Source of the DNA: a virus
Lineage: Duplodnaviria; Heunggongvirae; Uroviricota; Caudoviricetes
DNA length: 26,780 bases
Reading direction: 5' to 3' (one strand)
Virus record (IMG/VR): IMGVR_UViG_2713897161_000007
In this document: positions 3,983 through 25,865 of the stretch, piece after piece
How positions within the stretch are numbered: position 1 is the stretch's first letter
Layout of the letters: every line of letters starts with the position of its first letter
The notes under the pieces: generated by a model
Database searches by the model: none
Told to the model about the DNA's origin: nothing
The model's input: the letters and a program-made list of their open reading frames with translations, nothing else
Translations under genes and position numbers: made by a program

Positions 3983-4068
3983 CCGCATAAATAAAACCCC
4001 AGCTTAAATAAAAAAATGTGAACACAATCTGCATTCGCAGAGGTATTCACACACACCAAGGAGGCGTA

Positions 4069-4272
4069 ATGGCAATTAAGCATTTTCCTGTCGTTCGTTT
4101 CACCTCCAGAGGACGTGAATACGAAGTCGACGAACGTCTGATTACCACAATCGACAAACACCGCTCAGAAAAGGATGCACACCACATCTATCTCACTGAC
4201 GGCACTTACTTTTGCGCCACTAATGTGGCGCGGGTGAATCTTATCCGACAGGTACAGGATCCACGCAAATGA
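4069..4272 (+). CDS. Hypothetical early protein
   Basis: ATG at 4069 preceded by AGGAGG (longer track ORF starts at 4018). Protein MAIKHFPVVRF... Confidence 0.45.
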   Translation: MAIKHFPVVRFTSRGREYEVDERLITTIDKHRSEKDAHHIYLTDGTYFCATNVARVNLIRQVQDPRK

Positions 4273-4487
4273 GTAGGAGAAGAATCACTCGCAGACATCA
4301 CCGAACACACCTGAGTTCCTCAGCAACGCTAAAGGCACTTATTCAAAGCGAGATCGGTGATTTCTTCGCGGGAGTTGGCTCACCAGGCGAACCAGAAACA
4401 CCAGAAGCGATGCAGCGTGAGCTCATGATACGCATAGATAACACTTTTGATTTCTTCTACAGCATGCACGGAATTAAACAGAAATGA
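4269..4487 (+). CDS. Hypothetical early protein
   Basis: 72-aa ORF; start overlaps the upstream stop. Confidence 0.45.
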   Translation: MSRRRITRRHHRTHLSSSATLKALIQSEIGDFFAGVGSPGEPETPEAMQRELMIRIDNTFDFFYSMHGIKQK

Positions 4488-4595
4488 ACCTCAAGCCAGC
4501 AATAACTACTCGTAGAACGTCAATTCCTGTAACCGACCGCTTCTGAGTTTTTTGGCAGGAAGCCTTCGCACATCTGTAGTAAAGAGAATTGCAGC

Positions 4596-4985
4596 ATGAT
4601 TGACGCTCATGACTTCACAAGATGGGTGCGCACACAGGACACCCGTCTGGCTCCCGTTCTTCAGGGATTATTTGATCTCTACATCCGTGGTCGTGACAAC
4701 AGAGCACGCACCACAAAACCGGAGAATGCAGACACCCTTTATTTCACAGTAGACGACTGCTACCGCGTGGACTTCACACCACACGGGCTGGCGTTGCACT
4801 GCCTGACACCACACGGCGAATCACTGCTGGCGTATTACGACTCCCCGGCCTCCATATTTGCGGCAATGCTGGCGCATCGCACTGCTGGCGGGTGTGCCTC
4901 GCTGAGTGAATACTCCGCTGAATTTAACCGCCTTTCCGCCCTCTTCTCACAGGAGTGGCAGCGCGTGACGGGATACCAGCCATGA
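4596..4985 (+). CDS. Hypothetical protein immediately upstream of replication gene A
   Basis: 129-aa ORF; its stop overlaps the A start (ATGA at 4982-4985). Confidence 0.5.
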   Translation: MIDAHDFTRWVRTQDTRLAPVLQGLFDLYIRGRDNRARTTKPENADTLYFTVDDCYRVDFTPHGLALHCLTPHGESLLAYYDSPASIFAAMLAHRTAGGCASLSEYSAEFNRLSALFSQEWQRVTGYQP

Positions 4986-7822
4986 GTGCGTTTGCATGGA
5001 GCTGGAATGAACCACGGCCAGCCATTGATCCGGCCAGATTTACGGAGCGCAGGCAGGAAACTGAAACCGACCTGCAACGCGCCATCCGTTACTACCTTGA
5101 GGCAAACAAAAGGGCACAGGAAGAACAGGAAGCGAAGGAAGAAGCCTTTTTCGCACAATCCACCGTGGGTAAAAAACTCATGGCATCCCTTGAGGAAGCC
5201 GGACAGCGTGAAAAGCTGGCACAAAGCATCATCAGCAAGCGTCAGGCAACAGAACAAGACCCGGTGGCCCGTGCTTTTGCCACACTGAAGGTGCTTCCCG
5301 TTTATCTGCGTGAACCTCTGAGCCGCCACCTCTCTTTTCTGCGCAAGAAGCAGGAAGCCGATCGTCAGAAAGGCAAAAAGAGCTGGCAGGCTGAACGCTA
5401 CGCGCGCGGAACCCTGCGCAAAATATTCGAACGTCTGGACCGCACCGACAGCCGCTGGCTGACACCGGGCTATCGCTCCCTTGCCGGACGCGAACGCCTG
5501 GACGATTTGCTTTACCTGCCGCAGCTCAACAAACACCAGATACAGACGCTGGCCACCATGACGGCGGCGATGTTCAGTGGCACTTTTGAAAAACTCTGCG
5601 ATGGCTTTGGCGCGACCGATGGCGAGCTGACCATGGATGTAACGCTGAAGGCGTATCAGATGCTGGCCCGCATGGCGTTACACCTGCACGCTATGCCTCC
5701 ACATTATGACGCTCTGACAACAGACAAAGACCGGAGGAATGAACCGGACACGGAGCTGCTGCCGGGCGCAATCCTTCGCCTGACCTGTGCGGAATGGTGG
5801 AAACGCAAACTGTGGCTGTTACGTTGCGAGTGGAGAGAAGAACAACTCCGCGCCGCCTGTCTGGTTTCCAGAAAAACATCACCCTATCTGAGCCAGGACG
5901 CGTTAAGCGAGTTTCGCGCACAGCGCGAGAAAACACGCGATTTCCTGAAAAGTTTCATGCTGGAAAACGAAGACGGGTTCACGATTGATCTCGAGACAGT
6001 GTATTACGCGGGAGTAAGTAACCCGATTCACCGTAAGGCAGAAATGATGGCCACCATGAAGGGGCTGGAACTTCTGGCCGAAGCCCGTGGCGACAGAGCG
6101 GTGTTTCTGACTGTCACCTGCCCGTCAAAATACCACGCCACAACAGAGAACGGTCATCCGAATCCCAAATGGAACGGGGCCACCATGCGCGACTCCAGCG
6201 ATTACCTGGTTAACACGTTTTTTGCGGCGGTCCGCAAGAAACTGAACCGCGACGGCCTGCGCTGGTATGGCATCCGCACGGTGGAGCCTCACCATGACGG
6301 CACCGTGCACTGGCATATGATGGTCTTTGCTCATCCGGAAGAAATCGACACCATTGTGTCCCACACCCGCGATATTGCCATTCAGGAAGACCGCCACGAG
6401 CTGGGCAATGATATTACTCCGCGCTTTAAGGTGGAGTATGTCGACGGCTCAAAAGGCACGCCAACCAGCTACATCGCCACCTACATCGGAAAGAACCTGG
6501 ACAGCCGCGCCGTGGATGGCATCGACCCGAAAACGGGCAAGCCACGCGTTGACCACGAAACCGGAAAATCAATGGCCGAGAGCGTGGAACGCGCCATCGG
6601 CTGGGCACGCCTTCACCGGGTCCGCCAGTTCCAGTTCTTTGGCATCCCCTCCCGTCAGGTATGGCGTGAACTCCGCCGCCTTGCCAGCCAGATGGCACGC
6701 AACCCGGAAGGCCCACAACGGCTGAAGGATGATGCAATGGATGCGGTACTCGCTGCCGCTGATGCCGGATGTTTTGCCACCTACATTGAAAAACAGGGTG
6801 GCGTACTTGTTCCGCGCAAGGACTACCTGATTCGCACAGCCTACGACCTCGCAGATGAGCTGAACGATTACGGCGAACAGAGTGTACAGATTTACGGGAT
6901 CTGGTCGCCATTCATCGGGGAATCCTCCCGTGTGTGCACGCATCCGGATAACTGGAAGCTGGTAAGACGTAAACCGGAAGCGGAAGACAGCGCCCGCGAA
7001 AATGGTTTTGACCTTCAGGGCGGCCCTGCCGCCCCTTGGACTCGTGGCAATAACTGTCCCCGTGTACAGGAAACAGGCAACAACGGGACAGAACAGCCGG
7101 AAGAACGGCCAGCACCGTGGCCGCAGCTTCCTGACGGCGTTGAAGTAAATGAATGGATGCGCTCACTGAAACGGCACGAACGCCGGGCGCTGATGCGTTC
7201 GCTTCGTGACAAACAGGCAAAAAACAGCAGCGATGAAATGCAGAACTGGACACAGAGCCGCAAACAGCAGCGGCCTTTGCCTGATAACCACGAGTTACTC
7301 GCTAAAGAATGGCGGGAGTCTGCTGAATCTCTCGGCCTGCATATCGGTGAACAACAGATGCAGCACCTGTTACGGGGCGGCAGTCTGTACGTTGACGGCA
7401 GCATCATTGCACCGCAGGGATTTGAAATTGTACGCAAACCGGATACCCGCCCGGACAGCCGAATCACGCAGCTCTGGCAGCGTCTGAGCCGTAATCATGG
7501 CGTAAGCAGCACGGAGATCCGCCATAACCCGGTCGCCAGCTATCTGGCACAGCTGGGGGCATCAGACCCTGAAGCCGCCGCACGCCTGGCATCCACACTT
7601 CAGCAGGACCAGAACACCATGAAAACACCCGTTACCGTGCTTTCTGACATGCTGCGCGCCATCCGCGACGCAGAGCACGCACAGAGAATCAGTGAAACCA
7701 CTGAACGCGCCAGCCGCAAAGCAGACCTGCTGCGGGGTGGCCTGACCAGTGGAAACAAAAAACAGACAGAAACGGGACTCACGAATCCCGTAAATGAGCA
7801 AAAAACGCGCAGCGATATATGA
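4982..7822 (+). CDS. A: Rolling-circle replication initiator (HUH endonuclease), P2 gene A homologue
   Basis: HUH motif in TVHWHMMVF and paired catalytic tyrosines in YIATYIGK. Position matches P2 A. Start at 4982 or 4955. Confidence 0.85.
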   Translation: MSAFAWSWNEPRPAIDPARFTERRQETETDLQRAIRYYLEANKRAQEEQEAKEEAFFAQSTVGKKLMASLEEAGQREKLAQSIISKRQATEQDPVARAFATLKVLPVYLREPLSRHLSFLRKKQEADRQKGKKSWQAERYARGTLRKIFERLDRTDSRWLTPGYRSLAGRERLDDLLYLPQLNKHQIQTLATMTAAMFSGTFEKLCDGFGATDGELTMDVTLKAYQMLARMALHLHAMPPHYDALTTDKDRRNEPDTELLPGAILRLTCAEWWKRKLWLLRCEWREEQLRAACLVSRKTSPYLSQDALSEFRAQREKTRDFLKSFMLENEDGFTIDLETVYYAGVSNPIHRKAEMMATMKGLELLAEARGDRAVFLTVTCPSKYHATTENGHPNPKWNGATMRDSSDYLVNTFFAAVRKKLNRDGLRWYGIRTVEPHHDGTVHWHMMVFAHPEEIDTIVSHTRDIAIQEDRHELGNDITPRFKVEYVDGSKGTPTSYIATYIGKNLDSRAVDGIDPKTGKPRVDHETGKSMAESVERAIGWARLHRVRQFQFFGIPSRQVWRELRRLASQMARNPEGPQRLKDDAMDAVLAAADAGCFATYIEKQGGVLVPRKDYLIRTAYDLADELNDYGEQSVQIYGIWSPFIGESSRVCTHPDNWKLVRRKPEAEDSARENGFDLQGGPAAPWTRGNNCPRVQETGNNGTEQPEERPAPWPQLPDGVEVNEWMRSLKRHERRALMRSLRDKQAKNSSDEMQNWTQSRKQQRPLPDNHELLAKEWRESAESLGLHIGEQQMQHLLRGGSLYVDGSIIAPQGFEIVRKPDTRPDSRITQLWQRLSRNHGVSSTEIRHNPVASYLAQLGASDPEAAARLASTLQQDQNTMKTPVTVLSDMLRAIRDAEHAQRISETTERASRKADLLRGGLTSGNKKQTETGLTNPVNEQKTRSDI

Positions 7823-7898: not shown

Positions 7899-8858
7899 AT
7901 GAAAATTTACATCGACGACGGCTCCACCAACATCAAGCTGGCATGGACTGAGAACGGCGAACGCCGCAACGCCATCAGCCCGAACAGCTTCAAGTCGGAA
8001 TGGTCTGCGCCGTTCGGTGGCTCGCAGCCTGCTAACTACATGCTTGATGGCGTGCGCTATGGTTTTGATCCGGTCAGCGATCGCTTTGTCCAGACGACCG
8101 ACACGCAATACCAGTACAGCGATGTGAATGTCATTGCCATTCATCACGCGCTGGTCAAATCAGACATCACGCCACAGGAAGTGGATGTGGTTGTTACCCT
8201 GCCACTGAGCGAATATTTCGACACAAACGCACAGCCGGACATGGCCAACATCAACCGCAAAAAAGCGAACGTCATGCGCCCGGTGGAGTACCAGAACGGC
8301 GAAGCATTCACTATCCGTAACGTACGGGTTATGCCTGAATCCATTCCGGCTGGCTTTAAAGCACTGGCTGACATGAGTCCGTTTGAATCCCTGCTGATTG
8401 TGGATTTGGGCGGAACCACGCTGGATGTGGCAAAGGTTCAGGGGCAACTGGCAGGTATCAGCCAGGTGTTTTGCGATCCACACGTAGGCGTTTCTCTTAT
8501 GGCCGATGCCGTACTGTCGGTGATGGCCACTAACGGTATGCGCACCAGTCACCACATCGCCAATACCATTATCGAACATCGCCATAATGAAGCCTGGCTG
8601 CGCCAGCACATCCACAATGACGCGCATTACGCCAGCCTGATGGCGGTTATTCGTGAAAAGGAAGAAACACTGAAACAACGCGTGATCCGCGCGCTGGCGG
8701 TTTTTTCGGGTTACGGGCGGGTGATGGTTGTCGGTGGCGGGGCGGAGATTGTGGCACCCGCTATCCGCGAAGCCTGCGGAGTTAATGCGACTTTCATCGC
8801 GGACGGGGTGCCACAGTTTGCTCTGGTTAATGGGCTGTACGCAATGGACAAGGAGTAA
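7899..8858 (+). CDS. parM: ParM/StbA-family actin-like ATPase
   Basis: 319-aa ORF. N-terminus MKIYIDDGSTNIKLAW...ISPNSFKSEW and YSDVNVIAIHHAL match the plasmid R1 ParM signature. RBS AAGGA 8 nt upstream. Confidence 0.8.
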   Translation: MKIYIDDGSTNIKLAWTENGERRNAISPNSFKSEWSAPFGGSQPANYMLDGVRYGFDPVSDRFVQTTDTQYQYSDVNVIAIHHALVKSDITPQEVDVVVTLPLSEYFDTNAQPDMANINRKKANVMRPVEYQNGEAFTIRNVRVMPESIPAGFKALADMSPFESLLIVDLGGTTLDVAKVQGQLAGISQVFCDPHVGVSLMADAVLSVMATNGMRTSHHIANTIIEHRHNEAWLRQHIHNDAHYASLMAVIREKEETLKQRVIRALAVFSGYGRVMVVGGGAEIVAPAIREACGVNATFIADGVPQFALVNGLYAMDKE

Positions 8859-8862
8859 ACCA

Positions 8863-9174
8863 ATGACGACACCAACCAGACGGATAAGTTTCTATCTGAA
8901 GCCCGCCGCCGTCAAGAACGAAGGAGAAGCATGCGCCTGGCTGGACAGCCTTACACCAGAAGCCCGCAAAAGCGGCCAACGCGTGGCTTTTCTGGCCGGG
9001 CTGGCACTTCTGAAGACGAATCCGGCAGAGGCTTACCGACTGGCCGCATGGGCTGATGATGAGATGTTACCTGTGACACAAATCAGCTCAAAAAAGTTTG
9101 AAGCACAGTCTGCACCAGTGGCTAAGATAACCAGCCAGATGGCTGGGAATATCCGGGCGTTATTTCCTGAGTAA
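8863..9174 (+). CDS. parR: ParR-like ribbon-helix-helix centromere-binding protein
   Basis: 104-aa product from ATG 8863. RISFYLKPA and RVAFLAGLAL resemble R1 ParR (TIAFKLNP, RAALTAGLAL). Directly follows parM. Confidence 0.65.
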   Translation: MTTPTRRISFYLKPAAVKNEGEACAWLDSLTPEARKSGQRVAFLAGLALLKTNPAEAYRLAAWADDEMLPVTQISSKKFEAQSAPVAKITSQMAGNIRALFPE

Positions 9175-11340: not shown

Positions 11341-13091
11341 CAGAACTCCATAACCGTGAAACGCTCGTTTTCTCCTTCGCCGCCAATCGGTTCGTTAATG
11401 ACAGCAAGCATGGTTGCCCACGCAAGGTCGCCGTGGCTGATCCCCCTCGCGCGGTCCGTTTCGTAAGTGATAAAGCCGCCCGGTGTTTTCACCTTACGCA
11501 CGGCGTTAAAGGCCGCGACCAGCTCGCGTTCGGCGCGATCGTATTCCCACCGCCCGGCACGCATTATTTGCAGCATTTTCAGTACCAGCGACCGTTTTGA
11601 TGACAGCGTGAAGGTGTACGGAATAGCAGCAGGGAAAAACCGTTTCACTATCTGATAAACAGCCTCCCCGTTCCCGCCCGTCACATCAATGCCGATGTGT
11701 TCCACGTTGTAGCGATACGTGAACTCTTCAATGACTCTGGCCTGTTCTTCAAACTCCAGCCCCTGAACGCGTCGCGTCTCCACCGTTCGAAAACGGCCAC
11801 CAAGAACAGCCGGAGGAACCACCACGGACACAGCGCCGCTGTCGCCGTTGCCACTACTGCCGTTTGCGTCATACCCAATCCATACCGGACGATTCCCCAT
11901 CGGGCGGGGAGCAAAAGGTTTCCAGTCTTTCCAGTCGTCGTATCCGTCAACACCGCAGCCAATCAGGATATTCAGGTTAAATGCCGATTCCCCTTCGCGG
12001 ACAAACTCACACATATAGAGATTGAGGAACTCGTCTTCGGTGTTTTCATCACGAATTTCGTCGATATCGGTGTGTTTCCAGCCGTGATTGACCACATCTT
12101 CCAGCGTGACAATTTGCCGCCACGTCCGGTCAGGGCAGATAAGCCCGTTATGCAGAGTTTTCCAGTCCACAGAAAAACGCTGGCGTTTATGCGTGGCCTT
12201 TTTCTCGTTCCAGCGGTCGCCGTTCCAGTAGGCGTATGCCTCGTGCGTTTCGGTGGATGGCGTGGAGAAGTAGGTGCGCCGCAGTCCGCTGAGGGTTGCC
12301 ATAGCGCCAGCCACCTTGCGCAGTTCAGCAAAGCGACTGACCCAGAAAAATTCATCAAAATAAAAATTGCCCGTATAGGACTGTGCCGACGCAGCAGAAG
12401 TGCCGAGAAAATGCAGCTCTGCGCCGTTGGAGAGGATGATTTTATCGCCCCCTTTCAGCTCCACATCAACTTCAGCCGCGGCCTTCTGAATAATGCTTTT
12501 AAACTGGAACGCCTGACGACGCGACGCAGACAAAAAAATCTGGTTACGCTGGTAAGGTTGCGCCACATCGTCACGCAGCGCCATCAGCAGAGCTTCCTGT
12601 GCAAAATACCAGGTCGCCCCAATCTGTCGGGATTTCAGGATCATCCTGTTACGTATCCCGGCTTCCCTGCAAAGGGTCAGGGAGTCAAACCAGCCCCGCT
12701 GATGCCACTCCAGCCTGCTGATGATTTTTTCCCGCAGTGCGGCAATCTGTTCCGGCGTGAAATGATTTTTGAGTTTTTTCGCCCGGCCTTTCTTTCCTGT
12801 GACCGTCGCATCCGGCTGGCCATCATGCAGTTTTTTAAGCTGCCGGGTCAGCAGGTCTATTTCCTTAAAGTCACCGCCTGTTTTATTCTGTTTTTCAGTA
12901 AGCTGGATGAGGCGCGCATCGATGGACTGCGTGACACGCTGCACGGGTGGCGTTTCATCCCACTGGTCGCGTTTTTTCCACGCATAAATCGTGTTCGGGT
13001 TTATTCCCATCAGACGTGATATTTCTGCGGGCGGATAACCCTGCCAGTAAAGTTGCCGCGCACGCTGGCGCACAAAAGCGTCCTGAATCAT
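11340..13091 (-). CDS. P: Terminase large (ATPase) subunit, P2 gpP homologue
   Basis: 583-aa ORF, close to P2 gpP length. Divergent from O, as in P2. Confidence 0.9.
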   Translation of the reverse strand: MIQDAFVRQRARQLYWQGYPPAEISRLMGINPNTIYAWKKRDQWDETPPVQRVTQSIDARLIQLTEKQNKTGGDFKEIDLLTRQLKKLHDGQPDATVTGKKGRAKKLKNHFTPEQIAALREKIISRLEWHQRGWFDSLTLCREAGIRNRMILKSRQIGATWYFAQEALLMALRDDVAQPYQRNQIFLSASRRQAFQFKSIIQKAAAEVDVELKGGDKIILSNGAELHFLGTSAASAQSYTGNFYFDEFFWVSRFAELRKVAGAMATLSGLRRTYFSTPSTETHEAYAYWNGDRWNEKKATHKRQRFSVDWKTLHNGLICPDRTWRQIVTLEDVVNHGWKHTDIDEIRDENTEDEFLNLYMCEFVREGESAFNLNILIGCGVDGYDDWKDWKPFAPRPMGNRPVWIGYDANGSSGNGDSGAVSVVVPPAVLGGRFRTVETRRVQGLEFEEQARVIEEFTYRYNVEHIGIDVTGGNGEAVYQIVKRFFPAAIPYTFTLSSKRSLVLKMLQIMRAGRWEYDRAERELVAAFNAVRKVKTPGGFITYETDRARGISHGDLAWATMLAVINEPIGGEGENERFTVMEF

Positions 13092-13245
13092 TGCTCCCCC
13101 TGAGTAATTACAGGAAGATTACCCGCGCGCGAAACTGTTCTCCTTAACCCCCTGTTCTGGCCGTTTTCTTACAACAAAATCCCTTTGTATCAGCCTGTTA
13201 CGCTTTGCCATCATGACTGAAGAACCAGTCAGAGGGGCAAAAACT

Positions 13246-14082
13246 ATGGCTAATGAAAAAAAGACATCCCGCAAAAAGTTTCGCGTGGCTGTCTCCGGAT
13301 CAACTGTTGATGGCCGTGAAATCAGTCCGGTGCATCTGCGTGAAGCCGCCGAGAACTTCAACCCGGATGTTTACGCTGCCCGCGTGAACGTTGAGCACTA
13401 TCTCTCGCCATGCCCGTCAAGCGAATTTTCCGCAATGGGCGATGTCACCGCGCTGAGTACGGAAGATATTACGGAAGGCCCGCTGGCCGGACGTACTGCG
13501 CTGTATGCAGAAATCGAACCGACCGAGCGCATGAAGCAGCTTGTCGCTGACGGCAAGAAAATCTATTCCAGTATCGAACTGCACCCGCAGTTCTCCGTTA
13601 ACGGGCGTGCCTATCTGGTCGGGCTGGCGATGACCGACACCCCGGCAAGCCTGGGCACTGAGCGCCTGAAATTCACGGCACAGCAGCGTCAGGCGGTGAT
13701 GACGTTCAACAGTATCCAGGGTGAAGCACCGCTTATCTCCGAAGCCATCGAGTCTGAAATCATCGAAATGGCAGAACAACGCCAGGAAGAAGGCACCCAG
13801 TGGTTTAACCGCGTAATGGGGATTATTGGTCGTGGCCGCAAAGCGGATGACGCCAGTTTCTCCCGTATTCAGGAAGCGGTGGAAGGCGTTGCAACATCAC
13901 AGGCCGACATTATCGACCGTTTTAATGTGCTGGAAACCCGCCATCAGTAGGACCGCCAGAAAATCACGTCACTGACCACAGAGCTGACAGCACTGAAGGA
14001 AAAACTGCGCACGCAGGACGGCGATCCGCAGAACCGCTTCACCGCAACGGGCGCAGCCTCCGACCAGCTGGCTGACTTCTGA
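13246..14082 (+). pseudogene. O: Capsid scaffold/protease gene (P2 gpO homologue) interrupted by an in-frame TAG at 13948-13950; frame continues 43 codons to TGA at 14080-14082
   Basis: N-terminus MANEKKTSRKKFRVAVSGSTVDGREIS matches the gpO pattern. After ...ETRHQ-TAG the same frame reads DRQKITSLTTELTALKEKLRTQ...QLADF with no internal ATG. Summed length is close to P2 gpO. Confidence 0.7.
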
Positions 14083-14105
14083 TAAGACAAAGGAGCAAAT
14101 TTTTT

Positions 14106-14744
14106 ATGAATCTGGTGATGTCAGATATTACCCGCAACAAGCTGGGGTGCTATATGGCGCAGCAGGCGTCGCTTAACAATATCCCGGTATCTGCACTGGT
14201 ATCGCGATTTACCGTGGAACCCGCGGTGCAGCAGCGTTTTGAAAACGCCTCAAAGGAAAGTACCGAATTTACGAAAAGAATTAACGTGATCGGCGTGACC
14301 GACCAGAAAGGCGAAAAAATCCTCCTGGACACCACCGGGCCAATTGCGCGCACGAATAGCAGTTATGACGGCATCAAACGCCGTAAAACGGTTTATGACG
14401 TGGCATCAGGGGACTCGTTATTTATTTCTGAACTCGGTCCATTACCGGAAAATGTTACCTGGTTGTCGCCGTATGGAGAGTATCAGAAGTGGAACGGCAC
14501 ATCCTGGGTGAAAGATGCAGAAGCAGAAAAACTGTTTCGGATAAGGGAGGCGGAAGAAACAAAAAACAGCCTGATGCAGGTAGCCAGCGAGCATATTGCG
14601 CCACTTCAGGATGCCGTAGATTTGGATATTGCAACGGAGGAAGAGGCATCGTTACTGGCTGCATGGAAGACATACCGGGTATTGTTGAATCGTGTTAATA
14701 CAGCGGTAGCAGCGGATGTTGAGTGGCCAGTCGCCCCACAATAA
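14106..14744 (+). CDS. Chimeric ORF: N-terminal ~90 aa of major capsid protein (gpN-like) fused in frame to the C-terminal ~120 aa of a tail fibre assembly protein (Tfa/gpG-like)
   Basis: Residues ~30-90 ([10 protein letters not shown]...[17 protein letters not shown]) match the P2 gpN N-terminus as remembered. Residues 94-212 ([23 protein letters not shown]...[11 protein letters not shown]...EWPVAP) match lambda/P2 Tfa C-termini. Junction near 14370-14385. Confidence 0.7.
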
Positions 14745-14780
14745 AGAGAAAAAGCCATCGATTGAAATATAGATGGCTTT
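14745..14780. terminator. Hairpin between convergent genes; T-rich on the minus strand (terminator for the acetyltransferase gene)
   Basis: Stem AAGCCATC (14752-14759) / GATGGCTT (14772-14779); minus-strand reading is followed by TTTTTCTCTTT. Confidence 0.5.
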
Positions 14781-14787
14781 ATGTACT

Positions 14788-15393
14788 CTATTTATACAAT
14801 ACAACACCGCTCTTTTTAGTTATATATGTGCAGTTCGATGGTATATCTTTATTTATAAAAGACATTGCACCTATTTTTACATTATCCCCAATTTTACGTG
14901 ATAATCCAATGATGCAACAATTAGCTCCGATATCAACGTTACTACCAATTTTTACTCTTGAACCAGGCATGTCACCATCTATCTGTCCAATGGTAGTATT
15001 CTGTCGTAACACCAGATTTTCACCAGCATCAACAGCAAAATGAACAACAATTCCAGCATGATGGGGAATTGTTAACCCTTTTCCAATATTTGCGCCCAAT
15101 CCAATTTCACAACCAAATTTGTTAATTATTTTACTGTTTAACTTTTTGGCTGCTTTCTTATGTAATTTATTACCATTAATATACATTTCGTTAGCCAACC
15201 GCCACCAGAAAAGGAAATTCCGGTTACGCTGTTTTTTCTCTCTTAAAAGCCTCCAGATATCCATACGTTTCCGCCGAATTACTTCATATTTCCAGAAGTT
15301 TTTTAAATTAGTAGAGTCCCCAAATAAAACAAAGTGAATTGCCATTAAGTAAGACAGCACGATAATCTCCTTAATTATTATTTCAGACCACAC
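14788..15393 (-). CDS. Hexapeptide-repeat acetyltransferase, serine O-acetyltransferase (CysE/WcaB-like) family
   Basis: 201-aa ORF with left-handed beta-helix hexapeptide repeats (IGANIGKG, IGSNVDIGAN, IGDNVKIGAM) and a CysE-like segment before them. AT-rich. Start may be GTG at 15360 after AAGGAG. Confidence 0.8.
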   Translation of the reverse strand: MWSEIIIKEIIVLSYLMAIHFVLFGDSTNLKNFWKYEVIRRKRMDIWRLLREKKQRNRNFLFWWRLANEMYINGNKLHKKAAKKLNSKIINKFGCEIGLGANIGKGLTIPHHAGIVVHFAVDAGENLVLRQNTTIGQIDGDMPGSRVKIGSNVDIGANCCIIGLSRKIGDNVKIGAMSFINKDIPSNCTYITKKSGVVLYK

Positions 15394-15516
15394 ATATTAT
15401 AAGGTTAAGAGATTATAAAATCCTGTTGTTTGTTATTCAAAAACAATTTTCTGAGAAGGACATACAACAGCAAGTCGCCAGTCACCTTCATCAGGAAATT
15501 GGCGACATACGTTAAA

Positions 15517-16011
15517 TCAGAGCAGCCCCTTAACTGAGCTGGTCGCGCTATTAAGGGATGATGTCACCTTATCTTTGAAGCCGGACAACATATCGCTGAA
15601 CGATGAGGATTGCAGGCGCTCCCGCAAATCCTCATCACAGCGTTCAAGAGTCAGTGAAAATTCTATCTTTTTCGCCTTACCGTAGCGATCAAACTCGGAG
15701 CGGGTCGTATTCGTTTCGGTCAGGACATACATGCCGTAAATCTGCCCGACGCCATCAATCAGAGGCCAGGGCCGTCCTGTATACGCCTGCGTGGTCAGCA
15801 GAGACAGCGACACTTCGCCACCTGTAATTTCAGGATAAAGCACACCAGAAAGAACGATGCGATCATCACCTGCACCGATATACTGCCAGCTTGCTGAACG
15901 GTTAACGCGTTCATTTTTCACATGCCGCCAGCTTTTGTTTTGCTGTAACTGCTGATGCGGCAGCGTGCGCAGCTCAAAAACAAACATGCCATAGATCATC
16001 ATCATGGCCAT
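15517..16011 (-). CDS. U: Tail protein, P2 gpU homologue
   Basis: 164-aa ORF downstream of the tape measure gene; N-terminus MMMIYGMFVFELRTLPHQQLQ resembles gpU. Hairpin plus T-rich tract follows on the minus strand. Confidence 0.8.
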   Translation of the reverse strand: MAMMMIYGMFVFELRTLPHQQLQQNKSWRHVKNERVNRSASWQYIGAGDDRIVLSGVLYPEITGGEVSLSLLTTQAYTGRPWPLIDGVGQIYGMYVLTETNTTRSEFDRYGKAKKIEFSLTLERCDEDLRERLQSSSFSDMLSGFKDKVTSSLNSATSSVKGLL

Positions 16012-16017
16012 GACTCC

Positions 16018-18861
16018 TCAATCTTTATCGTAAAAACTGCCACGCCCGGCACGGGCGCGCCGTTCCATTTCTGCCCTGACCATTTCACCGACCAGTTTCG
16101 CCAGTTCGCGGGGATTCTGCGTAACAACGTTATGCAGATGAACATGAATTTCACCGCCAAATCTGGAGACAGCAGGCTCCCGATTACGGGAAGCTGCAGG
16201 AACTGATGCCACTGGCGATCGTATGGCCTCCGCCACCGGGCGGGAGCTGGCCGCAACAACAGGGACCAGCGCCGGAGGCAGCGGAGCCGGGACTACGGGT
16301 GTGATATTAATTGCGGGGGCAGGCTTACTGACCTGCGCAATCTTCCGCTCCTGCCACTCCCCACGAACAGCAAGTGCGCGGGGCAGGTTCTTAAAGACAA
16401 TATCGCCAGGGCCAATGCGTTTTTTCGTCTCATCAACCAGCTTACCTGTGTTATCAGCAATTTTGCTGAGTCTGCGTAGCGTCCCGGTATTGCTGTCTGT
16501 GAGCGGTTTGTTGTCTTTGGGTTTATCACCTCCGGTGCCATTGCCATTTTCCACAGGCTTCGGCGGATTGATTTTCGCCAGGTCCCCCTGAAGTAAGGCA
16601 ACCTTATCCTGAAGAATGGCCGCACGCTGTGCGTCTTCGATTTTCTTGCGCGCCCTTTCCGCTTCATCCGGAAGGACGCCAAGTTTTTCAAGTATCCACG
16701 CCAGCGTATCCAGTAGCATTTTTGCAGGTGTCAGAACAAGTTGTAACGCACCGCCAAGAACGTTACCGAATATCTCGCCAGCACTGGTACATTTATCCAG
16801 CGTTTCCTTGCTGGACTCCATCGGTGACAGCAGCGATTTAAACCAGTTAAACACCTGGCTGATCCCGCTTCCGATTGCGTCAAAAACAGGGCCAAACCGT
16901 TCAAAGGTTTCACGCAACGGGTTCAGCCTTTCCATAATCCCGCTGAACACCCCGGCAAAAAATGCCCTGATGGGATCCCAGTATTTCCAGATAAGGACGG
17001 CAGCTCCGGCAAGCGCAGCCACGATAAGACCAACCGGACTGAACAGCGCCCCGATAGCGCCTCCCAGTAAAGAAACGGAACCCGTCACCATTCCCCATAG
17101 TGCTGGCAGGACCCTGACAGCATTCATTGATCCGGTCAGGAGAGAAAAACCAAGACGCAGTTTTGCCAGCGGACCAGCAAGCACACCAATAGCCAGCGAC
17201 AACGAGCCAACCGTTGCAGTCATTGCCAGCAACGCACCGCCTGCTATCAGTAGCTGGCGCGTCAGTGCCGGATGGGCCTGCGCCAGCGCCGTCACCCTTG
17301 ATACCACCCGCGTGAGCCACTGCGTGACAGAACGCAGCGGACCGTCAATCAGATCTGCAATGCGGATGCGCAACCCTTCCCATGCACTGCCGAGTGATTT
17401 CAGATCGCCGTCAAGGTTGTTGGCCATAACCTTTGCTGTGCGTTCAGCCTCACCGCGCGCGCCTTCAAGTTCTTTTCTCAGTTTGGGTAAGGAACCGTCA
17501 CCCACTGCATCAACGAGCGCCATAAACGATGTGAAAGCCTCTTCTCCGGCAATGTCCTTAAAGAACGATACCCGGTCAACTTCCCCGTATTTGCGGGTGG
17601 CTTTATAAAGGTCGGCCAGCACATCCTCCATCGGGCGCATTTTACCCCCGGCATCCGAGACGGACACGCCCAGCTCTTTCAGAGCTTCTGCCGCCGCCTT
17701 TGGCGGTGATGCCAGACGAGCCAGGCTGGCACGCATTGCCGTCCCGGCATCACTCCCTCTGATGCCCATATTCGCCAGCACACCAGCCATCGCTGCGGCC
17801 TGCTCCAGCGATATTCCCAGCTTACCCGCCACCGGACCTGCATATTTCATGGTTTCGCCCAGTGCGCGAAGGTCAGTGTTGGTACGGGTAAACGCTGCGG
17901 TGAGTGTGTCACCGACCCGGTCCATCTGGTCAGCAGAAAGGCCGAACTGCGTCAGGATATTTGAGCCAATATCTGCCGTCTCGCCGAGATCCATACCGCC
18001 AGCCGTTGCCATGCTCAGCACTCCGGGAAGCGCAGCCTGAATGGCCTGCGGTGTGAAGCCTGCCATTGCAAGAAATGCCTGCCCACTGGCGGCATCGCCT
18101 GCGGTGAACTGCGTTTCAGAGCCAAGTTTTAACGCCTGCTCACGCAGCGCCTTAAACTGCGGGCTGTTCTGGTCGATTCGCGTCAGCGCCTGAACGCGGG
18201 ACATCTCTTTGCCGAACCCGATCGCGGGCTGCAAAAAACGCCCGGCAGCATAGCCGCCCGCCGCTGCCGCACCAATTGCCAGCGCACCACCTGTTTTCAG
18301 TTTTCCCGCGGTTTCCTGCGCGCGCGAATACCACTCACGCGCCCGCGTTACACGCGCAAGCGCCTGCCGTTCGCGTTCAAGCTGGTTGTTGTACTGTTCG
18401 GTGCGTCTGATGGCCTGCTGGATGGTGTTATCGCTGCCTGTCAGGGAAATGCCGTGGCGTTTCAGCTCTCCGCCAAGCTCCCGCATTTTCTGAATTTCCC
18501 GTGTGCGCGATTCATTCAGGCGTTCAAGCCGGGTGCTTAACTGCTGCATCAGCTTTTGTTGTTTTTCGCTGAGCACTGTACCCGTGCGTTGTAACTGATT
18601 AAGGGCGTTAAGCTGGCGTCGTGCTTTCACGATACCCGCATCCGCTTTACTGACAGCGTCGCGGGCGCGCTCAAATGAACGAGCCTGACGCTCGAGATTT
18701 TTAATCGCCCCCTGCGTTCGCTGGATGGAGTCACCAAACTGCCCCATCAGGCGGCGGGCGTTTTCGGCAGGCCGGGTCAGCCTGTCAACGGCGCTGAAAG
18801 CGACCCGGATATCAAGAGTCTTCATTGTCTGCATTCCCGCTGCGAAGTGCCGCCCGCTCAC
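16018..18861 (-). CDS. T: Tail tape measure protein, P2 gpT homologue
   Basis: 947-aa ORF, coiled-coil-rich N-half and hydrophobic Gly/Ala-rich central segments. Start is GTG at 18861 or ATG at 18834/18825. Confidence 0.9.
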   Translation of the reverse strand: MSGRHFAAGMQTMKTLDIRVAFSAVDRLTRPAENARRLMGQFGDSIQRTQGAIKNLERQARSFERARDAVSKADAGIVKARRQLNALNQLQRTGTVLSEKQQKLMQQLSTRLERLNESRTREIQKMRELGGELKRHGISLTGSDNTIQQAIRRTEQYNNQLERERQALARVTRAREWYSRAQETAGKLKTGGALAIGAAAAGGYAAGRFLQPAIGFGKEMSRVQALTRIDQNSPQFKALREQALKLGSETQFTAGDAASGQAFLAMAGFTPQAIQAALPGVLSMATAGGMDLGETADIGSNILTQFGLSADQMDRVGDTLTAAFTRTNTDLRALGETMKYAGPVAGKLGISLEQAAAMAGVLANMGIRGSDAGTAMRASLARLASPPKAAAEALKELGVSVSDAGGKMRPMEDVLADLYKATRKYGEVDRVSFFKDIAGEEAFTSFMALVDAVGDGSLPKLRKELEGARGEAERTAKVMANNLDGDLKSLGSAWEGLRIRIADLIDGPLRSVTQWLTRVVSRVTALAQAHPALTRQLLIAGGALLAMTATVGSLSLAIGVLAGPLAKLRLGFSLLTGSMNAVRVLPALWGMVTGSVSLLGGAIGALFSPVGLIVAALAGAAVLIWKYWDPIRAFFAGVFSGIMERLNPLRETFERFGPVFDAIGSGISQVFNWFKSLLSPMESSKETLDKCTSAGEIFGNVLGGALQLVLTPAKMLLDTLAWILEKLGVLPDEAERARKKIEDAQRAAILQDKVALLQGDLAKINPPKPVENGNGTGGDKPKDNKPLTDSNTGTLRRLSKIADNTGKLVDETKKRIGPGDIVFKNLPRALAVRGEWQERKIAQVSKPAPAINITPVVPAPLPPALVPVVAASSRPVAEAIRSPVASVPAASRNREPAVSRFGGEIHVHLHNVVTQNPRELAKLVGEMVRAEMERRARAGRGSFYDKD

Positions 18862-21249: not shown

Positions 21250-22350
21250 ATGACCGATACCACCATGCAATTGCTCAGTCAGAGCACAGACCCCGTGAAA
21301 ATGCCGGATTTTGATATTCTCGCGGAGGGGGAAACACTGTCCGGCGTGGCAGAGCGCCTGATGAGCCTGTCACTGACCGACAACCGGGGATTTGAAGCGG
21401 ACCTGCTCACCATCACGCTGGATGATGCGGATGGTCAGTTGCAGCTACCGCCACGGGGCGCGCGCCTGACGGTTCTCATTGGCTGGAAAGGAGAACCGCT
21501 GACAGAAAAAGGCACTTACATTGTTGATGAAATCGCTCACGAAGGACCGCCGGACAGGCTGACTGTTTCAGCCAGAAGCGCAGATTTTCGGGATGAATTT
21601 AACGTTAAACGTGAGGTGTCCTGGCATGATGTGACCGTTGAGCGCGTGGTATCCGCCATCGCTCATCGGTACGGTCTGAAACCACAAATCAGCGAAATGC
21701 TGATGGATATTGAAATCGACCACGCCGACCAGACCGAAGAAAGCGACATGTCCTTCCTTACGCGCATGGCGGAAATGCTGGGCGCAATCACTACGGTAAA
21801 AAGCAGTAATCTGTTATTCATCATGCCAGGCGGTGGCGTGAACGCACAGGGCCAGCCGTTGCCATCGTTCGCCATCACGCGCAGCAGTGGCGATCGCCAT
21901 CAGTTCCGCATTGCTGACCGCGAAGCGTATACGGGGGTACGTGCTTACTGGCTTGATCTTAATTACGGGAAAAAGAAAAAAGTCAGCGTGAAACGCCGCA
22001 AACCGAAAAAGGAGAAAAGCAGCAGCCGTGAAGGTGACTATATGGAAGGTGCGGAAGGCAACGTGTTTGTGTTACGCAAGACTTATCAGAACGAGCAGGC
22101 AGCAAGACGTGCAGCGGCGGCAAAGTGGCAGCAGCTACAACGCGGAGCCGCATCATTCTCCATCACGCTGGCGCGTGGACGCGCAGAACTCTATCCCGAA
22201 ATGCATGGCACGGTGACAGGCTTCAAAAGTGACATCGATAATCAGGACTGGATTATTGCAAAAGCCGAGCACACCATTGATAACAGCGGCTTTACCACAC
22301 AGCTTGAGCTTGAAGCAAAAATCCCGGAATGGATAGCAGAAACAGAATGA
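21250..22350 (+). CDS. D: Tail protein, P2 gpD homologue
   Basis: ATG at 21250 preceded by GGGAGGGAA. Motifs LTLTDNRGFEAD, DRLT.SARSADFR, ESWHD, EGDYMEG, AKW..LQRG, NSGFTT.LELE match gpD. Confidence 0.85.
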   Translation: MTDTTMQLLSQSTDPVKMPDFDILAEGETLSGVAERLMSLSLTDNRGFEADLLTITLDDADGQLQLPPRGARLTVLIGWKGEPLTEKGTYIVDEIAHEGPPDRLTVSARSADFRDEFNVKREVSWHDVTVERVVSAIAHRYGLKPQISEMLMDIEIDHADQTEESDMSFLTRMAEMLGAITTVKSSNLLFIMPGGGVNAQGQPLPSFAITRSSGDRHQFRIADREAYTGVRAYWLDLNYGKKKKVSVKRRKPKKEKSSSREGDYMEGAEGNVFVLRKTYQNEQAARRAAAAKWQQLQRGAASFSITLARGRAELYPEMHGTVTGFKSDIDNQDWIIAKAEHTIDNSGFTTQLELEAKIPEWIAETE

Positions 22351-22749
22351 GCAAATTAGATGTATTGACTCAAACCAGAACTGACACACTCACAGCACAG
22401 TGCCAGACCCAATCTGGCAGCCCGCTTTGTGCCTAGAGCAGGTGTTGCTTATGTAACAGTTAATCCACGGATAGTGGTCATGAATGCTGGTTGAAGTTGT
22501 ATTGCCATGAGTGGTCAATTAGGGACTCACTTATTATCGCGTGCTCACCATTGATGGGTAAGATCATGCATTTCGGCTACTGTACTTCGCGAATCCTCCG
22601 CACACAGGCAACACCTGATTTAAGAACAGAGGGAGATGATGACGCAAGGAAGATTTATTATCGTGCATGTGGCAGATGATCTTTTAGCTGCCGGAGTGAT
22701 AAATTACACCTATTTTCGATAAGTGTTTTTGTTATAGAACATTAATTTC

Positions 22750-23889
22750 GTGGGAAACAATAAAGTGAAATTAGGAAGAAATGATAAGTGCTGGTGTAAT
22801 TCAGGACTTAAGTATAAAAAGTGCCATCTTGGTCGAGATCGTGAAACTCCGGTATCCAAAGCCGAGGCACTGAAATTTTCAAAGTCTCTCTCGCAGAGAA
22901 AGGCATGTTATGCGCCAGCATCCATGCACGAAGATTGTGATAAACGCATCGTTCAGGCGCATACGATATCTAAGAGCAGTAGCCTTAAGGCGATCGCCGA
23001 CTCCAGCAATCACGTCATGGGGGTGATAATGAACTTAGCAAGCCTGATGAGAAACAACGGAAAATGGCTTCCCGAGAAGATCGGTATCAATCAGGCATCC
23101 ACTTTTACAGGATTTTGTGCAGTTCATGACAGAATCTTATTTTCATGCCTAGAGAACGAAAAATTTACAGGCACGGACGAGCAGTGCTTTGCCTTAATGT
23201 TTCGTTCATTGTCTAAAGAAATTTATGCCAAAGAAGGGGGAGTGCTATCTTCTGATTTTGCTAAAAATGCCGATAAAGGAAAGCTACAAGTTGAACAGTA
23301 TTATATTCAGAAATTAATCGACCAGCACCAAAGTGGCTTAAATGCAGCAATAATTGAATTAAATAATCTTAAAACTAGCCTCGACCGCATCCTACTTAGC
23401 AGGCAATTTTCAGAAATTGAAAGTGTTATCTTCACTTTTGCAGAGCCTTTACCAATTGTAGTTTCGTCAATTCTTTCACCGGAGAGGGATTTCGATGGGA
23501 CCAAAATTCAGGATTTGAGCGATCTTACAGTGTCGGCGGAACAAGTATGTTTCAATGCTTTTTCCTGCGGAGGTAAGGGATATGTAGTGTTCAGTTGGCT
23601 GAGAACTTCAACAATTATCAGACGTTTTATACGGACACTAATTAAGATCCCAGCTAACAGGATGTTCAATACCCTTCTGTATTTTTTCTTCACAAAGGCC
23701 GAAAATACATATTCATCCCCTGAGTGGTGGGACAGGCTCAGTGATAAACAGCGAGAGAATATCGGCAACATGATTATGTCAGGGGTTGAATTTTTTGGCA
23801 TACCTACATCACAGGTTGATCATTCCGTTGATTATAACGCCGCTGCACTTGAAGAGATAACATGCAGCAACAACGAAATTTGCAGCTGA
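22750..23889 (+). CDS. SEC-C-motif protein of unknown function (N-terminal zinc-binding motif plus ~350-aa uncharacterised domain); cargo between D and ogr
   Basis: 379-aa ORF with GTG start. N-terminal LGRNDKCWCNSGLKYKKCH matches the SEC-C metal-binding motif. AT-rich, preceded by ~400 bp AT-rich non-coding DNA. Confidence 0.7.
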   Translation: MGNNKVKLGRNDKCWCNSGLKYKKCHLGRDRETPVSKAEALKFSKSLSQRKACYAPASMHEDCDKRIVQAHTISKSSSLKAIADSSNHVMGVIMNLASLMRNNGKWLPEKIGINQASTFTGFCAVHDRILFSCLENEKFTGTDEQCFALMFRSLSKEIYAKEGGVLSSDFAKNADKGKLQVEQYYIQKLIDQHQSGLNAAIIELNNLKTSLDRILLSRQFSEIESVIFTFAEPLPIVVSSILSPERDFDGTKIQDLSDLTVSAEQVCFNAFSCGGKGYVVFSWLRTSTIIRRFIRTLIKIPANRMFNTLLYFFFTKAENTYSSPEWWDRLSDKQRENIGNMIMSGVEFFGIPTSQVDHSVDYNAAALEEITCSNNEICS

Positions 23890-24178
23890 ATGTTTACATG
23901 CTGTTAGAAAAAGCGGGCTGAACAATCATTTCGGGATTGTAACAGATAAGATGGCACTGCCCGCTTGCTTCCCGATATGCACCTCAGCCAATAAACTTAT
24001 GTAAGCAACCGATTTCCATTTATGCGGAGGTTATCAAAGTTGTTGGAGTTGCGAACTTCCGCTCTTCGCACAAAGCGTACCGCTAGGTTTGATTGTATTC
24101 TGGCTGCGCAAACTGTCAGTTGGAGTCTGAGCTATTACAACTTAGAATAGCGGCAGCACCACGTTAAGGGAGGTCGCT

Positions 24179-24439
24179 ATGTTCCGTTGTCCGCTTTGTG
24201 GCGCATCTGCCCGAATCCGCACCAGTCGTCCGGAAAACGATTCAAACACTGTGCGGCAAAAGTATTACCAGTGTAACAACCTGGAATGCGGCGTATGCTT
24301 CTCAACACTGGAAGCTTTCCATAAATTCACATCAAAACACGCCTCCGGCGTTCACTCTTCGGAAGGTATCCCGTGGCATGAGCTGCCAGCTTCACACAGG
24401 GGAAACAATCAGATGAGTTTGCCTTTACCTCAGAATTAA
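24179..24439 (+). CDS. ogr: Ogr/Delta-family zinc-finger late-gene activator
   Basis: MFRCPLCGASARIRTSR...YYQCNNLECGVCFST matches the P2 Ogr zinc-finger pattern. GGGAGG RBS 6 nt upstream. Confidence 0.85.
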   Translation: MFRCPLCGASARIRTSRPENDSNTVRQKYYQCNNLECGVCFSTLEAFHKFTSKHASGVHSSEGIPWHELPASHRGNNQMSLPLPQN

Positions 24440-24629: not shown

Positions 24630-24770
24630 ATGTCGCAAAAATCGCTTACAGCCATCACGTTCTGCGTGACGGTAATCCTCATCATCTGGATGCTACACGG
24701 TTCGCTGTGTGAAATACGGATGAGCTTCTGGGGAGCGGAGTTTGCGGCGTTCTTACAGTGTAAGCAGTAA
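24630..24770 (+). CDS. hok: Hok/Gef-family small membrane toxin (type I toxin-antitoxin toxin)
   Basis: 46-aa ORF MSQKSLTAITFCVTVILIIWMLHGSLCEIRMSFWGAEFAAFLQCKQ. Hydrophobic N-half plus SLCEIR and E[FV]AAF motifs of Hok. AAGGAG RBS. Not in the ORF track (short). Confidence 0.75.
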   Translation: MSQKSLTAITFCVTVILIIWMLHGSLCEIRMSFWGAEFAAFLQCKQ

Positions 24771-24958: not shown

Positions 24959-25240
24959 TTACTCAGCATTCTCCTGCTTCCATTGCCGGATCATTTCATC
25001 GGTAACATCACCCTCATAACATACCACGTCATACCCTCCATTACGGCTATATGCACTGCGTCCACCACATCTACTACCATTCCTTGCATGATTATAAGGA
25101 CACGCACAATTGCCTGGATAAGATTCAATGGATTCTTTAATTATTTCTTTTTTGATCTGAGCATCAGACTTTCCTGTTGCTGCATATCCACTAAAAGATA
25201 CTAAACAAAGGCAGATTGCCATTAATAAACCACATCGCAT
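24959..25240 (-). CDS. Small secreted Cys-rich protein of unknown function
   Basis: Longest ORF is 24959-25354, but a signal-peptide-like segment (MRCGLLMAICLCLVSFSGYAA) begins at the internal ATG at 25240. No convincing SD at any start. Confidence 0.45.
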   Translation of the reverse strand: MRCGLLMAICLCLVSFSGYAATGKSDAQIKKEIIKESIESYPGNCACPYNHARNGSRCGGRSAYSRNGGYDVVCYEGDVTDEMIRQWKQENAE

Positions 25241-25710
25241 ACCGATACACTCTATTACTAACCAATCATAGCCCACATCATAAAATCGAGATGAGGAGTA
25301 CAATACCTTTAACAAGAAGGTGTCATAACGATAATATGTCGTGCAATTCATCAAAAAAAAGATCTATATCAAAGAGATAGAACTCTTATCAGCGCTTCAG
25401 ACATCGGCATTCGAGGCAGCAGAAAAACAGTAAATCTGACGAATTTGCCTTTTCCCAAGATGTTGTCAGATTAAAAAGATAGATTAGCGCAGGTACCTGT
25501 TGGTGGATTGCAGGAGGAAAAATGAAGTCGAGTGAAAAAATCCCAGAAAAATTTTTGTTTAACAGAGGTCCTGGTTCACTATGCGAAATACGGAGGAGCT
25601 GCAGAAGAATTCTGCTTCATCCTTAGAGTTTAAACAGCACGTGCACTACCATTGTTTCTGCATATCGCCACACCATCGCCACTCTACCGCCATTGCACAA
25701 AATACAAATA

Positions 25711-25778: not shown

Positions 25779-25865
25779 TGGTACCCGGAGCGGGACTTGA
25801 ACCCGCACAGCGCGAACGCCGAGGGATTTTAAATCCCTTGTGTCTACCGATTCCACCATCCGGGC
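25779..25865 (-). tRNA. leuZ: tRNA-Leu (anticodon UAA)
   Basis: 87-nt minus-strand sequence GCCCGGATGG...ends CCGGGTACCA; anticodon loop TTTAAAA gives UAA. Matches E. coli leuZ as remembered. Confidence 0.95.

Follow-up and report, generated by a model that had tools for sequence, protein, structure and literature searches.

The window analysed here, a stretch of 26,780 nucleotides, comprises an entire P2-like (P88-like) prophage, with the integrase gene (positions 1 to 1002, minus strand) at one end and ogr, hok and then the chromosomal tRNA-Leu/Cys/Gly-pgsA flank at the other. A Leu-tRNA gene (25779 to 25865), which by E. coli gene order is leuZ, adjoins the prophage. The prophage is defective, with an ∼11-kb deletion in the capsid-tail fibre region. 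Tail gene D (phage late control; 21250 to 22350, plus strand; ORF open from 21118; annotated "phage late control D family protein" in the RM8385 record, which is 99.9% identical) and the late-gene activator gene ogr (24179 to 24439, plus strand; Pfam Ogr_Delta, E=5e-14) flank an inserted cassette of 1,786 bp (22361 to 24146, plus strand). Its limits were set by alignment with seven other cassettes and with the empty site of prophage L010, which is otherwise 95 to 97% identical to the window prophage and in which 42 bp separate the D stop from the ogr start. The GC content is 0.422 in the insert, 0.412 in its ORF and 0.434 in the 399-bp upstream spacer, compared to 0.54 in D and 0.547 in the tail block. 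The insert is missing from most of the related E. coli prophages sampled and from phages P88, Chuche, PhiR44_2, and Shae_phiSM, and other AT-rich cargos are found at the same junction. Thus, the proposal of a first-pass annotation of the sequence that ∼1.8 kb of AT-rich DNA between D and ogr was horizontally acquired at a noncanonical site is borne out. The same annotation confined the feature to positions 22351 to 23889; the insert is real but reaches 257 bp past the stop codon of the ORF. It also assigned the gene its own AT-rich upstream region, and in this case the composition of the spacer held up while a simple scan revealed no convincing sigma-70 promoter. Similarly, a promoter and terminator consensus scan of the insert gave nothing above shuffled expectation.

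The only long ORF between D and ogr (22750 to 23889, plus strand) encodes a protein of 379 amino acids from a GTG start. Because most homologues begin with MK(L/I)GRN and a GGGA sequence is located 9 nt upstream, the true start is probably the GTG at 22765, which would give a protein of 374 amino acids beginning with MKLGRN; residue numbers below refer to the longer form. The N-terminal SEC-C motif recognized in the first-pass annotation is present at residues 10 to 27 (22777 to 22830, plus strand; Pfam PF02810, E=2e-8, 34.4 bits vs. a cutoff of 20.4), with C14, C16, C25, and H26 as the zinc ligands. The motif, GRNDKCWCNSGLKYKKCH, exactly fits the SecA zinc-tail pattern CxCxSGxxYxxCH, and its ligands are 84 to 98% conserved among 201 nonredundant relatives. 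In a profile search of PDB sequences, SecA zinc-binding tail peptides matched with E=1e-7. All matches in sequence and profile searches of the PDB were confined to SecA and YchJ zinc-binding peptides, and those to SecA chains span just the final ∼20 residues of SecA.

The remaining ∼340 residues matched no Pfam, NCBIfam, PHROGs, or PADLOC family. A PHROGs search with the protein gave no matches, its PADLOC matches were merely to the SEC-C tails of the unrelated E2 and PDC-S12 models, and no second Pfam domain recurred among 38 family sequences scanned singly at E≤10. Neither family searches nor hydrophobicity analysis detected a nuclease, protease, NADase, or membrane domain. A membrane effector was rejected on the grounds that the most hydrophobic 19-residue segment (1.6, residues 223 to 243) corresponds to confidently predicted beta strands, and the modelled protein is soluble. 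The AlphaFold2 model is confident (pLDDT 88.9), and no structural neighbour of it was found in the PDB or BFVD.

In RefSeq/NCBI, the protein is named "YecA family protein." The SEC-C motif of SecA and YecA binds SecB and the ribosome. However, the YecA equivalog model NF007704 scores 17.9 bits vs. a cutoff of 149 and aligns only at profile positions 197 to 220 of 221, the YchJ family model also fails, and the protein has its SEC-C motif at the N terminus and lacks a UPF0149 domain, which argues against YecA membership. SecA membership was rejected as well, as there is neither a DEAD-like ATPase motor nor a preprotein-binding domain. What the protein shares with the SecA tail, YecA, and YchJ is a zinc knuckle of ∼20 residues and, with the knuckle moved to the N terminus, nothing else. 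Because the name is based on this short motif alone, it is untenable. Of the two readings that the first-pass annotation had set against its own, a characterized housekeeping family therefore finds no match in the YecA model, and a chromosomal sequence predating the prophage is at odds with the position of the gene inside the prophage.

A relative of proven function was found on lactococcal plasmids. In a tblastn search of plasmids, the window protein matched five Lactococcus plasmids, pUCCL633A among them, with E values of about 5e-27. Rugutis belongs to a set of seven new antiphage systems described from lactococcal plasmids (Grafakou et al. 2024; PMC11381338) and has been validated by experiment as a single-gene antiphage system (PMC11381338; Mosterd et al. 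2025, PMC12184496). The 359-residue protein WP_137016746.1 of plasmid pUCCL633A (strain UCCL633) is Rugutis, because it is the sole SEC-C protein of this plasmid and has the size given in Table 1 of PMC11381338. In a pairwise BLASTP comparison, residues 5 to 347 of the window protein align with residues 3 to 336 of Rugutis with 26% identity (E=3e-37), and when the family alignments of both proteins (A1, 38 sequences; A2, 29 sequences) were compared by hhalign, the probability was 100% with E=2e-69 over 326 columns. Both values make whole-length homology to Rugutis secure, and by sequence the window protein almost certainly belongs to the Rugutis family. The two proteins have in common an N-terminal SEC-C motif (residues 8 to 26 in Rugutis, E=3e-6; residues 10 to 27 in the window protein), a length of ∼360 to 380 residues, a stand-alone gene in mobile DNA, and the invariant core C..C..H...TFxGFCxxHD..F...E...R. 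They differ in their carriers, i.e., a plasmid in Lactococcus compared to a prophage hotspot in a Gram-negative host; in the fourth SEC-C ligand, which is Cys in the Rugutis branch and His in the window protein; and in H88 and N114, which are kept in the branch of the window protein but not in Rugutis. Because identity is just 26%, trigger and target could also differ. Rugutis, too, has a confident predicted fold without a relative in the PDB (PMC11381338, PMC13064643). The suggestion in the first-pass annotation that the gene is a single-gene defence cargo thus gains support from a full-length homologue, although the PADLOC check that it proposed was negative; the latter is explained by the absence of Rugutis from PADLOC and DefenseFinder (PMC13335696).

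The family is large, and its conservation indicates constraint. An exhaustive profile search recovered 7,000 clusters (50% identity) at E≤1e-3, including 3,496 at E≤1e-10, and the best-scoring 150 cluster representatives are mostly 360 to 390 residues long with near full-length matches to the profile. Members are found in gamma- and alpha-proteobacteria, Firmicutes, and Clostridia. Conservation was analysed after filtering at 60% identity, which left 201 sequences; these cover both branches and include Rugutis and a relative lacking SEC-C. Eight positions are 100% conserved (C53, C63, H71, C123, H126, D127, F131, and R152 in window numbering), and these delimit a family-invariant core (residues 53 to 152; 22906 to 23205, plus strand) that is a candidate metal or catalytic site and includes the motif A-S-T-F-x-G-F-C-x-x-H-D-x-x-x-F-x-x-x-E. 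In the C-terminal half, fewer positions are conserved (D247, Q254, W283, E318-N319, and W327). The invariant Cys, His, Asp, and Arg residues suggest a metal-dependent site. We infer that the N-terminal half would form the metal-binding or catalytic core, while the more variable C-terminal half may possibly serve in sensing. The relative without SEC-C, a protein of 380 residues (hhalign probability 99.6%), is encoded on the Klebsiella pneumoniae plasmid pKPN5, where pifC and a gene for a P-loop NTPase-fold protein are located ∼1.5 kb upstream, with one hypothetical gene between. Because this relative lacks the zinc knuckle, the knuckle appears to be accessory to the large domain.

Various assignments of the core to known enzyme folds were considered and found no support. 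An HNH-like nuclease built on C53..C63..H71..N114..C123xxH126 was dropped as unsupported, because N114 and H88 are not kept in Rugutis and no profile or fold match appeared. Caspase-like, papain-like, PD-(D/E)xK, and HD-domain readings of H71, C123, and H126-D127 drew on secondary structure alone and had no support from any tool. Protein P0384 resembled a deaminase joined to a Rugutis-like part, but its gene call, from a contig of 1.3 kb, was judged to be truncated or chimeric.

Of 5,426 complete E. coli genomes, 92 (1.7%) carry the gene, and all of these copies are in mobile DNA, some interrupted by insertion sequences. In 80 genomes, the copy is at least 99.4% identical and the cassette is at the D-ogr junction; the copy in the window is about one base off the common allele. 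The other 12 genomes have an 87%-identical allele in a different island that carries RepL and an H-NS-like gene. Of the homologues in other bacteria, one is at a Klebsiella prophage edge, one shares an integrase island of Pseudomonas with a zeta toxin, one is in a clostridial mobilisable element, and one, in S. suis, has a type III restriction-modification system on one side and an nSTAND/AAA gene on the other. Across the family, the settings thus include prophages, integrase islands, and plasmids, and a few homologues are among ordinary chromosomal genes. Among sequenced phage isolates the gene is rare, with two Listeria phage records as the only carriers.

In an even sampling of matching genomes, the D-ogr junction is usually empty. 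Where it is occupied, the survey of related prophages called for in the first-pass annotation revealed alternative cargos, in total eight types including that of the window, with a GC content of 33 to 42% (33 to 41% in the seven alternatives). These comprise a PIN_4 protein (500 residues); a PIN_12 protein (356 residues); a HEPN_RiboL-PSP-like protein (340 residues), which is a weak assignment below the Pfam cutoff; a ComF/PRTase protein that is PsyrT-like (PADLOC E=1e-7) with a partner of 185 residues; a DUF3800 protein; and two further proteins of 221 and 201 residues without an assigned family. The PsyrT-like PRTase was the sole PADLOC match among the seven alternative cargos and the other ORFs of the window. 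D-ogr thus adds to the defence-cargo hotspots known in P2-like prophages. Like the published P2 hotspots gpA-gpQ (old/tin; Rousset et al. 2022) and Z/fun, it contains one or two AT-rich, quickly swapped cargo genes amid conserved phage genes; unlike these, it lies between D and ogr, and its cassettes are bordered by conserved inverted repeats and flanked by a direct repeat. No description of D-ogr as a hotspot was found in the literature searched, and no mention of inverted-repeat borders in the P2-hotspot literature, in which the term itself was searched in the iLund4u preprint only.

The borders of the cassette were defined by comparison with the empty site, which has a single copy of the repeat A(A/C)TTAGA, AACTTAGA. 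In the window, this repeat is present at the left (AATTAGA, 22354 to 22360) and at the right (ACTTAGA, 24140 to 24146). It accompanies degenerate terminal inverted repeats at 22358 to 22446 (blocks 22358 to 22386 and 22411 to 22446) and 24054 to 24142 (blocks 24054 to 24089 and 24114 to 24142), the arms of which pair as 22358-22386/24114-24142 and 22411-22446/24054-24089. These end sequences are common to all eight cassette types, the cargos of which are unrelated, and are lacking from the empty site. The left ends and the reverse-complemented right ends form one aligned family. A profile built from the left ends only matches the minus strand at the extreme right ends of five of the eight cassettes, in three with E≤0.015 (best in the window, 1.7e-5) and in two weakly (E of 0.3 and 0.8); within most single cassettes, the similarity between arms is not above that of shuffled sequences. 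The same type of end bounds a 1.75-kb cassette with a gene for a 331-residue protein beside a lambdoid prophage integrase (L027). In strain M9 (L026), a cassette remnant is located between IS1 and an IS256-family element, and similar sequence lies just outside the latter. However, because the M9 element carries its own, different inverted repeats, the cassette ends are not IS256 ends. No cognate transposase or recombinase for the ends was found. We suggest that the borders may mark a non-autonomous mobile cassette or may be mere recombination handles.

Altogether, these findings support a reading in which the gene is a prophage-carried immunity cargo of the Rugutis family, and we place the probability of this reading at roughly 0.7. 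It is based on the product being a distant, full-length relative of a proven antiphage protein, and defence activity in E. coli itself is likewise likely by this analogy. Weighing against it, the prophage is defective, so that hitchhiking could account in part for retention of the gene, some copies are interrupted by insertion sequences, and a few homologues are among ordinary chromosomal genes. In Lactococcus, Rugutis blocks phage after adsorption and injection. The mutations of phage c2 escapers affect the large terminase in its ATPase domain (PMC12184496), and expression of the c2 terminase in Rugutis-bearing cells lowers viability (PMC12184496; reviewed in PMC13064643). However, the terminase with the escape allele is still toxic together with Rugutis (PMC12184496), so that terminase sensing is a tentative reading for Rugutis itself.

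By analogy, the window protein would protect the lysogen against other phages once their DNA is inside the cell. As a stand-alone protein, it would combine sensor and effector in one polypeptide. The resting protein would be switched on by a late phage protein, which is the large terminase in Lactococcus, and once activated would turn toxic, in that way stopping phage production. The invariant Cys/His/Asp/Arg cluster is the candidate source of the toxic activity, and the N-terminal SEC-C knuckle could act as an accessory docking, tethering, or regulatory module. We hold the parts of this model with different confidence. That the effector is a metal-dependent enzyme acting through C53, C63, H71, C123, H126, D127, and R152 is plausible, at somewhat less than even odds; terminase-type triggering with an abortive outcome is possible but more tentative. 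If the analogy to Rugutis holds, the protein may resemble the STAND NTPases Avs1-3 and lactococcal Rhea in being a single terminase-responsive sensor-effector. In contrast to these, it contains no STAND/NTPase or recognizable effector domain, and no sequence or fold similarity to Avs1-3 or Rhea was found. A more far-reaching proposal, which we think rather unlikely, holds that the D-ogr cargos are inverted repeat-bounded, target duplication-flanked, non-autonomous cassettes that shuttle single-gene immunity modules between unrelated prophages, and that the Rugutis-family core is a new metal-dependent effector fold delivered by a SecA-type knuckle.

Four other explanations were weighed, and none of them is favoured. 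The gene could be a moron with another benefit, i.e., counter-defence, superinfection exclusion aimed only at P2 relatives, or lysogenic conversion or virulence. A prophage accessory locus fits this equally well, and carrier strains include O157:H7, O26:H11, O103, and O111, many carriers being Shiga-toxin-producing E. coli. However, the sole family member to have been tested is a defence system, the family extends across Firmicutes and alpha- and gamma-proteobacteria, where its plasmids and islands have no link to virulence, and the alternative cargos at D-ogr are RNase- and PRTase-type effectors as is typical of defence and toxin systems. We consider this explanation clearly unlikely. Very unlikely is a toxin of an addiction module that stabilizes the prophage or cassette, any antiphage effect then being incidental. 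Consistent with such a toxin, Rugutis constructs were unstable or not introducible in two lactococcal strains (PMC11381338), a hok toxin gene lies 740 bp downstream, and the prophage is retained although it is defective. By contrast, there is no conserved partner gene that could encode an antitoxin beside the family members in any context examined, no conserved ORF was found in the upstream spacer, and, at the DNA level, homology to the 87% allele extends only 52 nt upstream of the start codon.

The defect in the prophage also bears on the idea that the gene is a decaying, nonfunctional remnant in a cryptic prophage. The ∼11-kb deletion and the few genomes with IS-split copies are in line with decay. 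However, the ORF is intact, 80 genomes carry a nearly identical copy, all family invariants are present, and the AlphaFold2 model is confident, which makes a remnant extremely unlikely. Least likely of all is a housekeeping role in secretion or at the ribosome, of the YecA, SecA, or YchJ kind, for which the RefSeq name and the perfect fit to the zinc-binding tail of SecA speak, but which is contradicted by the restriction of this match to ∼20 residues at the N terminus, the failure of NF007704, the lack of a UPF0149 or ATPase domain, the rarity of the gene in E. coli and its confinement to mobile DNA, and the existence of a homologue without SEC-C.

Compared to these explanations, immunity cargo of the Rugutis family is the reading that we prefer. 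The Rugutis antiphage family was already known; new is a family member in E. coli, identified by sequence, and its location in the D-ogr hotspot. Because Rugutis is absent from PADLOC and DefenseFinder, relatives in thousands of genomes are labelled "YecA family." The D-ogr junction holds several uncharacterized candidate systems, and its conserved inverted-repeat borders may explain how its cargo swaps. The occurrence of the family in E. coli opens tractable genetics and large phage collections to the study of its trigger and effector, for which the eight invariant residues are specific mutagenesis targets. The importance of the finding would be greater if the borders are a mobility device or if the core is a new effector enzyme.

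Eight cassettes at the D-ogr junction, that of the window and those of the seven junctions from other E. coli prophages (L011-L017), carry unrelated cargos and share degenerate terminal inverted repeats of ~60-90 nt. In the window, these repeats lie at 22358-22446 (left) and 24054-24142 (right). The cassettes are flanked by a direct repeat, A(A/C)TTAGA, which is present as a single copy in the empty site. In these respects, the cassette borders resemble those of MITEs or mobile insertion cassettes; alternatively, they resemble conserved recombination handles. Ends of the same type are found outside this junction. In E. coli MN06021 (L027), they bound a 1.75-kb cassette at 4001-5753 that adjoins a lambdoid prophage integrase and whose 331-aa product matches nothing in Pfam. 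In E. coli M9 (L026), a single remnant end at 4001-4085 has IS1 on one side and, on the other, an IS256-family element with its own inverted repeats, which differ from the D-ogr-type ends. Within the right inverted repeat of the window cassette, 24092-24119 (-) matches a sigma-70-like promoter at 10/12 positions (CTGACA-16-TACAAT) and is oriented back toward the 3' end of the Rugutis-family gene; by its consensus match, it is a possible antisense promoter.

The cargos at L011-L017 comprise a PIN_4 protein of 500 aa, a PIN_12 protein of 356 aa, a 340-aa protein with a weak match to HEPN_RiboL-PSP-like proteins, a PsyrT-like PRTase with a 185-aa partner, a DUF3800 protein of 389 aa, and two family-less proteins of 221 and 201 aa at separate junctions. 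PADLOC matched the PRTase and none of the other cargos at these junctions; the latter are therefore rated candidate defence genes.

The window prophage has further accessory sites. The classical gpA-gpQ (old/tin) hotspot, at 7899-9174 (+), is without a recognised defence system and holds a plasmid-type partition pair, in which 7899-8858 (+) encodes a ParM/StbA actin-like ATPase and 8728-9174 (+) a Plasmid_stab_B protein. A hexapeptide-repeat acetyltransferase (14788-15393, -), annotated as a serine O-acetyltransferase in RM8385, occupies a Z/fun-like position beside the tail genes, and the adjoining tail-fibre-assembly coding remnant contains an Rfam IS009 match (14509-14707, +). After ogr lies a hok/gef toxin gene (24630-24770, +), followed, before the tRNA-Leu attachment flank, by an ORF (24959-25354, -) whose small product is rich in Cys, has a hydrophobic N-terminus and matches no family.

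The ORF at 14106-14744 (+) fuses the first ~93 aa of a P2-family major capsid protein in-frame to a C-terminal tail-fibre-assembly domain. We therefore conclude that the window prophage is defective, having lost ~11 kb with the genes for capsid, small terminase, lysis, baseplate and tail fibre. The 3.4-kb stretch spanning the deletion junction (12800-16200) is covered to at least 80% by no complete RefSeq E. coli genome.

Elsewhere, a 380-aa protein encoded by the IncR plasmid pKPN5 of K. pneumoniae (L008, 4992-6134) is homologous to the large domain of the Rugutis family, and the SEC-C motif is entirely absent from it; pifC and a gene for a P-loop NTPase-fold protein lie ~1.5 kb upstream of its gene, with one hypothetical gene intervening. 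In some O111:H11 strains, and in some others, the Rugutis-like gene is split (NZ_CP077567.1 and NZ_CP077491.1, matches H17, H18 and H240; NZ_CP037945.1, match H241), and these O111:H11 copies are interrupted by the IS4-like element ISVsa5. Thus, the gene is occasionally inactivated in the wild.
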